Positions 3,920 to 55,667 of a DNA stretch of 64,000 nt are shown here, piece after piece. The stretch spans positions 23,002,001 through 23,066,000 of the forward strand of contig OX597829.1 of NCBI GenBank assembly GCA_951406725.2. Direction: 5' to 3'. Numbering within the stretch: position 1 is the first letter of the stretch; every line of letters begins with the position of its first letter. This DNA is from Octopus vulgaris (Eukaryota). Below the pieces are notes generated by a model. It was given only the letters and a program-made list of their open reading frames with translations. It was not told where the DNA came from and did not search any database. The translations under genes were made by a program, and so were the position numbers.

Positions 3920-4054
3920 TGGAGAGTGAGGGAGAGGAGAGAGAGAGGGAGAGAGGGAGAAGGAGAGAGAGAGGGAGGAGATAGAAATCATCGAAAGGGA
4001 GAGAGAGAAAGAGAGTGGGAGAGCTCACCAGAAGGAAGAGAGAAAGATCTTTAA

Positions 4055-24469: not shown

Positions 24470-24840
24470 ATTTAATTAATTGATTGTCTGGTTAATTTTT
24501 CTGTCAGTCAATCAGGTAGGCTAATCAATTGACAAATAATAAGAGAAGTTAAACAGAACCAGTGCGTGTGTTCATTATTGGCATAATAACCCTCCCAAGA
24601 ATCAACAAATCGTCATTTATTTAACAGATTAGTCACTTGATTATTTAATTAATTGTTTGGTCAGTCAATTAGGGAGGTTAACCAATTGGCTAATAATAAT
24701 GAAAGAAGTGTAACAAAACCAGTGCGTGTGCTTATAATGAGCATAATGACCCTCCCAAGATTGCCTTTTATTTAACAAATTTATTTATGCATTGTTTGAT
24801 TATTTGTTTGGTCAATCAATAAGATAGGCTACTCAATTGT

Positions 24841-24845
<5 letters not shown>
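24470..24845 (+). repeat. ~160-bp degenerate tandem repeat; unit 3 resumes at 27210-27275
   Basis: Shared GTCA.TCAAT.AG..AGG.TA..CAATTG and GAAGT..AACA.AACCA.T.CGTG..ATAAT.AC.CTCCCAA blocks. Confidence 0.75.
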
Positions 24846-24928
<83 letters not shown>

Positions 24929-24944
24929 TAATAACAATAATAAC

Positions 24945-24980
<36 letters not shown>

Positions 24981-24982
<2 letters not shown>

Positions 24983-26944
24983 ACAGAAAGGATGTAAACG
25001 TGGATCCTACGATTGTAAAGATCAACTACTCATCAATAAGATGATCTTAGAAGATTGTCACAAACGACACAAAAACTTATCAATAGCCTGGATAGACTAT
25101 AAAAAGGCTTTTGATAGCCTACCACATAGCTGGATTAAGAAATGCCTAGAAATGTATAAGATAGCACCTACTCTGCGAAACTTTTTGCCTGTAAGTATGA
25201 GATCATGGAGAACCACACTAACTTTGAACAGTGACAATGAATCTCTAAATGCTGGTGATGTAAACATTTCATGTGGCATTTTCCAGGGTGACTCACTATC
25301 ACCACTCCTCTTCTGTTTATCCTTAGTACCTCTCTCAAAACCGCTCAATGACGCGCAGTACGAATATAAAATGTTTGATAAAAATATAAATAATCTCATT
25401 TACATGGATGATTTAAAGCTCTTTGCAAAAAATGACAAACAACTCAAGGGCTTACTAGCGATTGTCAAACAACTCAGTGATGACATCAGAATGCAATTTG
25501 GCCTCGATAAATGTGCAAAAGCTACCTTTATCAAAGGAAAAATGACAGAAACATCTAACGTTAACCTTGACCAGTAGAATGTCATAAAAGAATTAGACCC
25601 AGCGGAGAACTTCAAGTATCTAGGGATAATTGAAGGGGACGGAATAAGGCATTCAGAGATGAAGGAAAGGATCAGGAGAGAATGTTATCGCAGAGTAAGA
25701 GCAATACTCAAGACAGAGCTGAATGCGAGAAACAGGATCGAAGCGATCAACGCATTAGCCATACCAGTCGTGACTTACAGTTTCAATATCGTTAACTGGT
25801 CAATTACTGAAATATGTAATCTTGACAGAAAAATACGAAAACTGTTGGCAATGCATAGAATGCACCACCCTAAGGCAGATACAGAACGACTTTATCTGCC
25901 AAGAAAAGAGGGAGGCCGTGGACTTTTACAACTGGCAATAACAATGAAGATTGCTACAATTGAACTAGACACCTACCTGAAAAACTCTGAGGACTGGATG
26001 TTAAAACTTGCCTCAAAACATGAAAACAAGAAAGCATCATACTCAGTAACAAAACAGGCAAAGGAATATCTAAGTGAATTCCGAATACAACAAATTTCGG
26101 AATTAGAGATAGACATACAAGAAACAAGCACAGAAAAAGCTAAGCGCATGAAAACCCGTGTTAAAAATGCGGCCTTAGATATTCTGAATGATAAATGGCA
26201 AGAAAAACCTCTCTATGGCAAATACCCAAAGAGAGCGAATAATGCAGATGTTGACAAAGCCCTAACCCATCAACTCTGGCTTAAAATCCGAAACAGAGGG
26301 ATTTATCATAGCAGCTCAAGATCAATGCCTACCAACAAGAAAATACCAGGCCAACATATTAAAGAACGGCAGTAGCCCAACATGTCGTGTATGTCAGCAA
26401 CAAAATGAAACCATTGATCATGTCTCCAAGTGCAGTCTTCTAGCGCCTACAGAGTATCTCAACAGGCATGATAGAGCTGCGCAATATATTCACTGCGTAA
26501 TCTGCAAAAACCTGGATTTGCCCCATGAAAAAACTGGTGGGAACACAAACCACCCCCAGTGCTTGAAAATGACCACATCTCACTCCTCTGGAACTTCCCC
26601 ATTCAAACTGCAGAAAGATAGATGCAAATAGGCCAGACATCATATTGAAAGACTTCAAATAAAGAACATGTCTCCTCATTGATATGACTGTCCCAATCGA
26701 TATAAACGTATCTGTAAAGACCTACCAAAAATTGAGCAAATATAAAGATCTTGAAATAGAAGTCAGCAAAATGTGGAACCTGAAGACTAAAACAATACCT
26801 GTTGTCATAGGTGCCCTGGGAATGATAGCAAAAGGGGCTGATTGCTACCTAACTCAGATACCAAGAAACCCCAAAATGGCAGAAATTCAAAAGATAGTGC
26901 GCATGGGAACTGCTCGTATCCTACGCAAAATACTTTCTATGTAA
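24981..26944 (+). pseudogene. Disrupted Dong RT-REL reading frame
   Basis: In-frame stop at 25575-25577, plus several frameshifts and stops after ~26270. Confidence 0.9.
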
Positions 26945-35099: not shown

Positions 35100-36842
35100 A
35101 AACTCCCCCCACACTCTTAGGAGTACACGTGTCTTCTTTTCTTTTGCGGGTGAGAAACATAGTGATAGGCGTTGCCTTTTCTTCTGTGTTAGGAGGTTTT
35201 TATAATCTTCCATGGCTCCGTCGATTGCATTTCCGAACTGCAAGTCACGAATCATCTGGGGTTTCCAATCTCCCACCATTCTCTGAAGTTCTGTTGCCAT
35301 TTTTGCTAGAGTTGAGAAGCGTTCTAGTGATAGGCCGACTTCTTCTTCTTCCCCTGGATTCTCGTTGTTCTTCTTCGTCCTCACTTGCAGACTTCGATAT
35401 CCCTGTCAGATCTTCATCCGTTAACGGATCTGAGTGGGCTGCGATCAAGTTATTAAAGTCCTTGGTAGTCATATTGGTGAAACCATCTCCTCCTAGCAAT
35501 TTTTCCGGCTTCACTGCCTTATGTATTGCAGAGTGGTAGATTTCGTCAGAAGAGAATCCTTTATAGTTGTGGACCGCTTCTGGCCATAATTTCTTCCAAC
35601 TGCCATTCAAAGTTTCGTTCTTCATCTCCTTTATGACCTGAATATTTTGGAGACATGTTGCAATGGAGTACCTACCCCAGTACTCCTTCAACGAGAATCT
35701 CTCATCTGAGTCCTTAGCCTCGACCAGGTGTCGCAGGGAGTTTCGCGTATAGAGTGTCTTAAAAGCACGAATAACGTCTTGATCCATGGGCTGGATCAGA
35801 GATGTGGTGTTCGGCGGTAAGAATTCGATTTGTACACCCTCATACCTCAGGTCAAGAGCGTGACCTTCAGCATTGTCCATTAGGAGAAGCACTTTAAATT
35901 CCAGTCCTTTTTCGGCGAGATAAACTTTGACTTCGAGAATGAAGCACTGGTGAAACTAATCCGATGTCAGTGATTTTATTATCCATGCCTTCTGGTTGTG
36001 CATCTATCCAATTCACTGGCAGCAGGTTCTTAGTTTTGGTTTCGTGGGCCCTTGGGTTTCTGGACTTATAGATAAGTTCTGGCTTCATCATAAAGCCCAC
36101 AGCATTTCCACACAATATAATTATGACGCGATCTTTGTACGCCTTAAATTGAGGGACTCTGGCCTCCTCTTTCATAATGGAAGTCTGCGATGGCATCCGT
36201 TTCCAAAAGAGACCAGTCTATATCCATATTGAAAACTTGTTCACGCGAATCCTCGACGATGGTCTTGAATGTCTCGTTCACGTATTCCTCAGCGGCGGGT
36301 TTGTCAGCAGAGGCAGCTTCTCGATGCATGAACGTACTCTTAATGTTGAACCTCCTTTGGAATTTATCAAACCAGCCCTTGCTGGCATTAATTTCGGTTA
36401 GATTGGTGGGAGGTGCCGTAGATGGTCCTAGTTCACAGTCGTCTGGGTCGTCGTCACCGCCATCCGTAAACTTGCCGTACAGCTGCCTGGCCTTCTCAGA
36501 GATGGTGTTAATATCGAGTGCAATGTTCTTCTTCTTGCAGTCACTGATCCAAAGAGTTAATGCAGACCACATCGTTACGATATCCTTATTACGGGAAGTT
36601 ACCACTCTATTCGCTGGCTTGTCAAAAGTCACTTTTGCCGTCGCCCTTATATATTTTTCGTCCTTCTTGATGTAGCGAACGTTAGATCCATTGATGTCGT
36701 AATGGCAGCCTACATTCGCATACCTTCTCTCTTCCTTAAGCATGTCGAGGAGTTTTACCTTCTCTGCTATAGGAAGCATCTTCCTTTGGCGCTTGAGTTC
36801 CCTGCCAGAAGCCTTAGAAAGTGCAGAACGTTTGGACGACAT
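35100..36842 (-). pseudogene. Tigger transposase (CENP-B-type HTH plus DDE_1), frameshifted
   Basis: RKMLPIAEKVKLLD, ASKGWFDKFQRR, EQVFNMD and LLLMDNAEGH..FLPPNTTSLIQPMDQDVIRAFK, spread across several frames. Confidence 0.92.
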
Positions 36843-36988
36843 CGTAGAGCTTGAAATATATACACAATTTTATACACAAATGCAAAACAACACCATACAC
36901 TCGCTTCCCGAGTTTCGTTTTCCTTACAGTATATGTGATTCTTTGTTTACTCATCTTCGGTACACTACACATTGTCTTTTAATATATA

Positions 36989-53975: not shown

Positions 53976-54493
53976 ACTCTTTTATTCTTTTACTTGTTTC
54001 AGTCATTTGACTGCGGCCATGCTGGAGCACCGCCTTTTAGTCGAGCAAATCGACCCGGGACTTATTCTTTTGTAAGCCCAGTACTTATTCTATCGGTCTC
54101 TTTTACTTGTTTCAGTCATTTGACTGAGGCCATGCTGGAGCACCGCCTTTTAGTCGAGCAAATCGACCCGGGACTTATTCTTTTGTAAGCCCAGTACTTA
54201 TTCTATTGGTCTCTTTTGCCAAACCGCTAAGTGACGGGGACGAAAACACACCAGCATCGGTTGTCAAGCAATGCTAGGGGGACAAACACAGACATACAAA
54301 CATACACACACACACATATATATATACATATATACGACAGGCTTCTTTCAGTTTCCGTCTACCAAATCCACTCACAAGGCATTGGTCGGCCCGGGGCTAT
54401 AACAGAAGACACTTGCCCAAGATGCCACGCAGTGGGACTGAACCCGCAACCATGTGGTTGGTTAGCAAGCTACTTACCACACAGCCACTCCTA
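53976..54493 (-). mobile_element. SINE family B with duplicated ~113-bp 3' module
   Basis: TTTTACTTGTTTCAGTCATTTGACTG..TTATTCTAT.GGTCTC occurs twice in tandem. Confidence 0.9.
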
Positions 54494-54720
54494 CGGAATC
54501 ATTAAAATAATTATCTGAAATGTATTTAGTTTCGATCAATCGAATATTCATCGCTTCTTGTCAATGTATTGGAATTTTTACAAACGCAAATACTTACACA
54601 TTCTCTCTCAGCCTTTTATTTGTTTCAGTCATATGACTGCAGCCATTTTGAAGCTCCACCGTGTAAGACTTGTTGAATAGATCGACGCCAATACTTATTT
54701 TCAGCTTAGTACTTATCTAT

Positions 54721-54900
54721 AGGGGACCAAAGGAAAGTGATTGCGTCACTCATAGCCTCTCCTCTCCAGGTGTAATGATCGCTGCAGAACCTCTACTTGG
54801 CTGCGCCTTGTGGAAAGTTCTTGCTAATGGCCTCTCCTGCACTACTGTGTCCACAGCAGCACCTTCACGCGGTACCCCCTGTTCTCACTGAGCCTGCTGT
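54721..54900 (+). ncRNA. HDV/CPEB3-like ribozyme candidate
   Basis: P2 ACAGCAGC / G(c)CUGCUGU; P3 ACC / GGU; L3 UUCACGC; P1' ACCCCCU followed by GU; J4/2 CUGA. The P1 5' strand is the G-run at the insertion's 5' junction. Confidence 0.65.
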
Positions 54901-55281
54901 GTGGCGCGACCGGGTGCTTGGCGGTATAACCAGGTGGGCAGACCGGGCTCGTTAGCCTTGGTTGGCAGCCAGTCTAGGAGAAGGAAAACTCTGACTCCAA
55001 ACCCTCGCTCCGCTGCCTTGCGGATGCTCTTGGGAGAGGGAAAGGCTATGGGAGTAAACCCAGACAGAAAATCCGGAGTGGAGCCCCGAAGGCGGTAGGG
55101 TGTCGAATCTCGACCCCTTTCCGGCAACTCCTGCAGCCAACCAGACTCCAAACGTACTGCACTGCATTCCTTTGGATTATGTCTGGGGGGGCCGAGAGGG
55201 AGATTCTGGTGTCTGGGGAGCCCAGTGTCTTCGTTTCTACCGCCCAGGCTTGCGCCATGGAGAAACTACTCCATCGATGGA
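54723..55281 (+). mobile_element. 559-bp non-coding RTE-related insertion inside an old SINE B
   Basis: 12-bp TSD ACTTATCTATAG at 54711-54722 and 55282-55293. Contains GCAGCCAGTCTAGGAGAAGGAAAACTCTGA, a motif I recognise from RTE 5'UTRs. Confidence 0.8.
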
Positions 55282-55667
55282 ACTTATCTATAGTACTTAT
55301 TTTTCCCGAACCGCTGAGTTACGAGTACATAAACAAACCAACATACACACCCACGCACACACATACACACCCATATGTGTGGATTTTACACTGTTTCCGT
55401 CTACCATATTTACTCAAAGTGTTTTGCAGGAACGTCTTAACTGCATAGACATGCCTAGTATAATGATATTCTTGGATAACGAAACAGAGGCGCTTTTCTG
55501 TTTTGTTTTGTTTTTCAAGAAACCATATGATACGTCCTTGGTTTTAAGAATACAAACATTTCTGTTAAAAGATTTCAGTAAATTTACCGATAAATTCTAA
55601 CAAAGAATAATTATTATAATTATAATTATTATTATTATCATTATTATTATTTTTATTATTTTTTTTT

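Follow-up and report, generated by a model that had tools for sequence, protein, structure and literature searches.

The GC-rich insert at 54723-55281 of the window (the 64-kb stretch of Octopus vulgaris DNA analysed here) is the first 559 nt, all of it 5' UTR, of a young, ~4.0-kb, single-ORF APE-RT LINE of RTE type. We hold with moderate confidence that it arose as a 5' UTR-only insertion of this LINE, the 5' end of which would have been set by a self-cleaving ribozyme and the 3' end by priming at a mimic hairpin on full-length RNA. The initial annotation had described a perfect 12-bp target-site duplication (TSD) bracketing a 559-nt GC-rich insert with no credible protein, and this description holds: the insert has 57% GC and stops in all six frames, leaving it without a long ORF, and the exact 12-bp TSD ACTTATCTATAG has just two occurrences in the window, at 54711-54722 and 55282-55293 (+), with a match that cannot be extended on either side. 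The last G of the left TSD doubles as the G1 position of the ribozyme, while the first two bases of the right TSD, AC, are those of LINE nt 560-561 (microhomology). The insertion sits in a host short interspersed repeat (54590-55400, strand unassigned), and because both flanks (54590-54722 and 55282-~55345) match one repeat unit found at three other window sites (near 11.5, 23.4 and 46.2 kb), the host repeat is contiguous across the insertion.

When compared with the genome, the insert was matched by 39 other places at 97-99% identity (40 of 741 candidates having been scored). Sequence beyond nt 559 continued alike in 11 of the first 30 loci, and each of the six long copies retrieved was ~4.0 kb in length and ended with a 3' stem-loop plus a purine-rich, variable tail. 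An autonomous RTE-type element sharing the insert's 5' end, which the initial annotation had anticipated, was found in these full-length copies: the LINE frame encodes endonuclease and reverse transcriptase domains, with the reading frame broken in each of the six long copies read, and its protein relatives, among the best 120 listed, are mostly ~1045 aa with the same two domains. Copies diverge by about 1.3-1.7% from the family majority, and the family is therefore young. A single ORF with APE and RT, a length of about 3-4.5 kb and a short 3' UTR with short repeats are all found, and the parent thus appears to be an RTE by its architecture and by the RTE 5' UTR box rather than by a tree with named references. 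A conserved 5' UTR box, GGAGAAGG, lies at 54970-54993 (+) in the window copy. It is common to many other families in the genome, with 190 matches at up to 3 mismatches, and a search with a box variant gave no match in the genome. The published octopus RTE-2_OV (Petrosino et al. 2022) was considered as the parent and rejected, given that four published primers, compared with six copies, gave best matches with 4-8 mismatches.

Outside the octopus, viral contigs gave 0 matches, genome contigs one, to the box alone, and metagenome contigs two, one of which (L077) is a homologous LINE 5' UTR from another animal and the other the box region only. A bacterial genome-bin contig (L118, CAXXGD010000052.1) carries the LINE box within AT-rich, animal-like DNA, representing possible host contamination. 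In sequencing runs, a word share near 0.55 first hinted at a short RNA; assembled contigs from three presumed-RNA runs and one run of unknown kind, which cannot show RNA ends, span the whole element, mostly as a copy without the first 15 nt. In two presumed-RNA runs, contigs connect one long copy that lacks the P1 5' strand (L059, G000:C12:80587820-80590839) with the sequence flanking it upstream.

A CPEB3-like, P4-less HDV-like fold had been proposed for the start of the insert, and the motif order and positions given for it stand. On the + strand, the P1 5' strand (54722-54728, with predicted cleavage 5' of G54722) is followed by a 123-nt J1/2 insertion (54729-54851) with predicted hairpins and a CU-rich decoy for the G-run, the P2 5' strand (54852-54860), P3 (ACC/GGU) with L3 UUCACGC (54861-54873), the P1 3' strand ACCCCCU (54874-54880) and the P1.1 strand GU (54881-54882; together 54874-54882), a 5-nt linker replacing P4 (54883-54887), J4/2 CUGA with the predicted catalytic C54888 (linker and J4/2 together 54883-54891), and the P2 3' strand (54892-54901), consisting of G, a bulged C and CUGCUGUG. 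Position 54888 is indeed C; what needs correction is P2, in which 8 bp (CACAGCAG/CUGCUGUG) are accompanied by a C-G pair and one bulged C, and J1/2, which measures 123 nt. P1 is GGGGGGC/ACCCCCU in the family majority, with one G·U and five G-C pairs (6 bp) and a C·A mismatch, so that the complementarity expected between the 5' G-run and ACCCCCU is present in the consensus. In the window copy the 5' strand reads GGGGACC. The initial annotation was right that P1 is weakened here, whereas its figure of about 5 of 7 bp requires moving the register by one base; counted from G1 at 54722, the last TSD base, 4 of 7 pairs remain, and for this reason the ribozyme of the window copy is probably weak or dead. 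The HDV-like order P1-P2-P3-L3-P3'-P1'-P1.1-(P4)-J4/2-P2' with a P1 of 6-7 bp is accordingly found in the majority sequence and in L077, with a P1 of 4 bp in the window copy.

Among 41 gapless cores (two further cores had indels), the equivalents of C75 (C54888), C22 and G38 are unchanged in 41/41 and U20·G25 is kept in 39/41; fifteen of the 41 pass an intactness test on all criteria. P1 has at least 6 bp in 24 of the 33 copies that retain the 5' end. The predicted cut had been said to coincide with the element start, and 34 of 50 box-anchored copies do begin at nt 1-3. An HDV core descriptor, written only after the motif had been seen, matched once in the 64-kb window on both strands and in 0/5000 first-order Markov simulations of the insert. 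Agreement with the HDV and CPEB3 models was not obtained in the Rfam scans, which matched neither family; this is expected because J1/2 has 123 nt and P4 is absent. In the minimum-energy fold the G-run pairs with the CU-rich J1/2 decoy (duplex -10.6 versus -11.9 kcal/mol for the true P1), and the fold of J1/2 is no more stable than that of shuffles (z -0.9).

Seven of the 50 copies (L039, L051, L063, L067, L068, L111, L112) are 5'-truncated at nt 198-204, just past the ribozyme; the element contains no more than four TATA words, one of them at this point, and the truncations probably reflect microhomology with TA-repeat targets. At the 5' junction of L073, two tandem repeats of the first ~20 nt of the element precede its start, as from repeated template jumps.

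Stem covariation is consistent with the predicted fold. L077 (70% identity over 903 nt) has a P1 of 7 bp, and compared with the window family five pairs have changed on both sides, two on one side and none is broken; only 1/500 shuffles scored as high, slid controls were far lower, and just two independent sequences enter this comparison. Two further families in the genome have the same P4-less layout with a 5-nt linker and different sequences. The second family, of RTE type, comprises six copies (L091:388-560, G000:C2:150374894, and L119-L123) with their own predicted P4-less HDV-like fold: P1 GGUUCC/GGAACU, L3 UGCUCGU, P1.1 GC (two pairs, including G21-C39), linker UUUUA and CAGA. The third, older family has P1 (G/A)GUUUC/GAAACU, L3 UUCCCGC and P1.1 GU in 20 of 21 cores. 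The differences in sequence shown by these two families include U-A versus C-G in P1. Combined with the core conservation, the five double-sided changes against L077 and the changes in these two families, few independent sequences as they are, agree with the P1/P2/P3 pairing that had been proposed and suggest that a P4-less HDV-like ribozyme likely sets the element's 5' end. In all four families, five bases separate P1.1 from the catalytic C, and the linker follows U-N-N-N-A: UCUCA in the window, UAUGA in L077, UUUUA in L091 and UCCCA in L128. The U and A at its ends hint at a one-pair remnant of P4. Searching the genome with a degenerate core pattern gave 33 matches, all of them in the window family, and missed both families found later through L091. 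Older box-bearing families (L078-L108, L113-L117) gave no match to the descriptor, in which L3 had to be U(C/U)C, so that L091 escaped it. A separate family (L145, L146, L149) has an extended leader upstream, and directly ahead of the shared box region its sequence is ribozyme-like but decayed.

The window element resembles the mammalian CPEB3 ribozyme, which has L3 UUCACGU, in L3 UUCACG(C/U), in a P1.1 made up of a single C-G pair and U·U, and in the terminal C·A mismatch of P1, whereas its predicted fold lacks P4, has a J1/2 of 123 nt and stands at a retrotransposon start; nothing points to common descent. HDV-like ribozymes at the 5' ends of RTE, R2, R4 and L1Tc elements are described in the available parts of PMC3774820, PMC6765202 and PMC5786205, and large J1/2 domains in the corresponding part of PMC4908430. 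As far as the accessible text of PMC3774820 goes, P4 is missing from the Bombyx mori R2 ribozyme, the J1/2 of which is very long, and in an abalone ribozyme P4 is replaced by 5 nt. With these and drz-Agam-2-1 the window element would share the double-pseudoknot order, the predicted cut at the first base and the large J1/2; by contrast, its sequences are new and were missed by Rfam. Minimal (P4-less) drz and theta ribozymes also carry a short linker for P4, and in the portion of PMC10879173 at hand they are almost all from phages with a short J1/2, whereas the fold predicted here occurs in animal LINEs. The ribozyme is thus new only as sequence, and such families may already be listed in Ruminski 2011; it adds four natural P4-less, long-J1/2 sequences missed by Rfam to a build already in print.

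To avoid selecting on the 3' end, copies were anchored at the box (nt 249-272), upstream of that end. The resulting 50 copies consist of 39 exact rows, 10 of 12 one-mismatch rows (the other two being other families) and one two-mismatch row, with 90 three-mismatch rows outside the set. They comprise 14 long copies (open to the locus end, six verified as full length), five bipartite copies in which the 5' UTR is joined to the 3' tail, one degraded bipartite copy (L109, scored as short by the script) and 30 short copies. Twenty-three of the 50 end within nt 553-563 without a tail, eleven of them exactly at 559, a pile-up with a uniform-null p of about 1e-35 after correction. The window copy is of this kind, aligning to LINE nt 1-561 only and then running into the TSD, with the LINE 3' UTR absent. 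Among these 23 short copies, six have non-microsatellite TSDs of 10-20 bp, eight lie in TA runs where a TSD is not judgeable, in five the match is limited to 6-9 bp or consists largely of TA, and four have none; the right flank is not a TA run in 16. Their junctions show 1-3 bases of microhomology, with two A-runs (30 and 6 nt), four cases of 2-5 extra repeat-like bases, and junction bases matching LINE nt 560-562 in three. Six 5'-truncated copies (starts 59 to 513, three of them from outside the box set) end at the same 3' point, and the pattern is therefore that of reverse transcription starting at about nt 559. Copy L109 (G000:C1:53220675-53221998) is full of TA-repeat replacements along its length, perhaps through conversion or assembly.

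The tailless copies end at the foot of a hairpin, CC-AUGGAG-loop-CUCCAU-CGAU-GG-A (55255-55281, +), which includes the element's only 12-bp palindrome (55270-55281). The true 3' end of the LINE folds as CCC, an internal loop, a 6-bp stem, a 4-nt loop and GGG-GA, so in the predicted structures both sites have a C-G closing stem, an internal loop and a 6-bp hairpin. The pattern CCAT-hairpin-GA(C/T)GG occurs in the element only at 533-558, 549-573 and 3969-3991 (the true 3' end); it was drawn after both sites had been seen, with ~0.3 chance matches estimated per element. L077 and L091 retain the inner hairpin, one of its pairs having changed in a compensatory way, and in both a separate second hairpin comes after it; in the window family this second hairpin has collapsed to the 12-bp palindrome, which accounts for the likeness to the 3' stem-loop. 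A second self-cleaving motif making the 3' end near nt 559 was considered and dropped, as Rfam scans matched no ribozyme family there.

The third, older family (L124-L144, L147, L148, L150, L151) consists of ribozyme-headed, bipartite, non-autonomous elements of ~600-700 nt with a (GAC)n tail and many different deletion junctions, their 5' parts ending at nt 513-552; it is the true SIDE analogue in this genome. A tail was found by fuzzy match in 21 of 25 copies, one more shows 3' sequence and three are tailless, at 268, 271 and 493, so that none of the 25 contributes to a tailless pile-up at the hairpin. In 20 of its 22 bipartite copies the junction falls at nt 513-552, next to the same hairpin, and the partners joined there differ; bipartite junctions of the window family lie at nt 551-655. 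Bipartite copies rejoin in this same zone, so it is probably held near the enzyme: the 3' edge of the structured 5' UTR would be kept close by, with the enzyme of most families jumping to it from the 3' end and that of the window family able to start on it.

These observations suggest the following sequence of events. The RNA would fold into the double pseudoknot and cut 5' of G1, which would free the element from read-through transcripts, as the covariation and the known RTE and R2 ribozymes imply. The LINE protein may then bind its own full-length RNA and nick TA-rich DNA at a T|A site, after which the 3' end at the nick could form 1-3 base pairs, not with the tail but with the unpaired A/AC that lies just 3' of the internal hairpin. 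Reverse transcription from the hairpin foot would copy the 5' UTR alone, and the true 3' tail may still be required in cis for binding. The window copy, having lost two P1 pairs at its 5' junction, would cut poorly or not at all. According to the available parts of PMC6007223 and PMC13295347, RTEs prefer T|A targets and show microhomology of 1-2 bases, both of which fit the window junction. Non-L1 LINEs are thought to need their own 3' end for the start of reverse transcription (PMC6007223 and PMC3414825, in the parts accessible).

Two other origins of the shared 3' end were weighed against priming on full-length RNA. With the ribozyme unchanged, the template could be a 3'-trimmed RNA, in which 3'-to-5' decay or cleavage stalls at the hairpin foot and leaves a stable 559-nt 5' UTR RNA for the LINE enzyme to prime on, or to jump to, the latter giving bipartite copies. 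We regard this as possible but rather unlikely. The spread of the short ends over 11 nt, the four copies with 2-5 extra repeat-like junction bases, the clustering of bipartite junctions of two families in the same zone and the known ability of the R2 reverse transcriptase to jump to other RNAs (in the consulted part of PMC3414825) all agree with it; the two short copies with A-runs in particular fit an RNA with a real 3' end and count against internal priming. However, the junction bases equal to LINE nt 560-562 in 3/23 copies mean that the RNA reached at least there, the older family has the hairpin and shows no tailless pile-up, and in the case of L1 tailless copies a search for truncated RNAs yielded none, as stated in the accessible portion of PMC5322556. 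The sharp end could also reflect DNA-level deletion of nt 560 to the tail from full-length copies after integration, through the palindrome or GA(C/T)GG microhomologies, or mis-joined contigs in TA repeats, given that the end coincides with the only 12-bp palindrome of the element, many copies lie in TA runs and 4/23 have no TSD. This we consider very improbable, since in the window copy and five others the end runs straight into a clean TSD of 10-20 bp and nothing of a tail is left, the host repeat continues unbroken from one side of the window insertion to the other, 16/23 right flanks are not TA runs, and 5'-truncated copies share the same end.

The initial annotation had read the insert as a non-autonomous RTE derivative analogous to R2 SIDEs, and a self-propagating SINE- or SIDE-like family, in which short masters are transcribed, ribozyme-cut and mobilised in trans, would account for the uniform length with TSDs, for the intact-looking ribozyme in many short copies (10 of the 23 short ones of the box set aside) and for two short copies with different flanks (L021 and L075) that have three private substitutions in common. 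Such a family is nevertheless improbable. In a tree of 40 rows sharing most columns (10 of the 50 aligned copies being left out as 5'-truncated), the short copies were rejected as one clade (p-AU 2.6e-8); they interleave with the long ones and are no more clustered than shuffled labels. Two sub-lineages marked by four linked sites each hold short, long and bipartite copies, and private variants pair short with long copies in L011/L025, L016/L008 and L060/L067. Given the absence of a clade and these pairs, the short form would therefore have been made repeatedly, mostly from the sources of the long copies, that is from the LINE's own sources as judged from the copy tree; a secondary short source is possible, and the tree may be less clear-cut if conversion or template switching took place. 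The SIDE analogy fails on two counts, the insert having no 3' part of the LINE and copies of its kind not forming one lineage. At the 5' end, the pseudoknot could be conserved for protein binding, promoter function or translation without cutting, the sharp end being a transcription start. Consistent with this are the missing Rfam match and the C·A in P1, single-pair P1.1 and G-run decoy, which lower the expected cleavage; in addition, in vitro cleavage of B. mori R2, which shares this build, reached only about 1% (available part of PMC3774820). The Rfam result and the decoy, like the ordinary stability of J1/2, also count against our own account. We give a pseudoknot that does not cut very little credence, because four sequence families preserve C75, U20·G25 and C22-G38 even as their stems covary, and because related moth R2 ribozymes cleaved 10-25% in that same part of PMC3774820. 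A weak P1.1 is, moreover, compatible with fast cleavage in a nematode example (PMC13635239, in the section available). By analogy with L1Tc (PMC3383444, as far as its available text extends), the sharp 5' end could instead come from an internal promoter.

Compared with R2 SIDEs and bipartite RTEs (Bov-A, RTESINE and RTE-N, in the accessible part of PMC5786205), the insert is likewise short and non-coding and has a LINE 5' end with a ribozyme. SIDEs, however, retain ribozyme and 3' UTR (PMC3774820 and PMC3414825, in the parts at hand), and the insert is not a SIDE because this defining 3' UTR is absent; the window copy and 22 others of 50 lack it and form no lineage. True SIDE-like bipartite copies number 5/50 plus one degraded in the window family, the window copy not among them, so that bipartite copies make up 5-6/50 there compared with 22/25 in the older family. 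Tailless retropseudogenes (Noll et al. 2015), as presented in the available portion of PMC5322556, are 3'-truncated at defined positions, have TSDs and no tail, and are attributed to internal priming with target complementarity; they are tied to relaxed L1 machinery, with tRNA, 5S and U2 as source RNAs. The window family is likewise TSD-flanked, tailless and 3'-truncated at a defined point. It differs in that the source is the LINE's own 5' UTR in an RTE-type system, accounting for 46% of copies, and in that microhomology is 1-3 bases at an end that is G-rich rather than A-rich. At its 5' end the insert would function in the manner of an RTE ribozyme; at the 3' end the short copies work like tailless retropseudogenes but are not members of that class as defined (L1, A-rich target-complementary sites).

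In the literature searched, with Repbase and subscription papers outside that search, we found no report of an RTE 5' UTR inserting alone at a fixed end or tailless. The 3' end of MARE3 (Kojima 2018) lies inside the 5' UTR of an RTE, which was taken to mean that the consensus is truncated, and the available parts of PMC13282606 and PMC9115989 do not mention ribozymes. Why RTEs in particular yield internally deleted derivatives is stated as unexplained in the accessible text of PMC5786205. The young family provides a natural map for this problem, since nearly half of its copies apparently begin synthesis at one 5' UTR hairpin, and the deletion junctions of two families fall in the same zone; the question is testable with a few point changes. 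We tentatively raise, as a doubtful extension, the idea that the 559-nt 5' UTR is a complete mobile unit, with a self-cut 5' end and an internal copy of the 3' recognition signal, mobilised tailless by the RTE enzyme. If true, it would represent a route to SINE birth in progress and explain why RTE 5' UTRs recur in SINE bodies.

Other repeats were noted in the window. A 113-bp tandem duplication, 98% identical and part of the host short repeat, lies at 53986-54211. Broken reverse-transcriptase frames of another retroelement, with a YMDD motif, lie at 24828-26375 (+), and transposase fragments, presumably Tigger/pogo-like, at 35245-36869 (-), both judged by eye.
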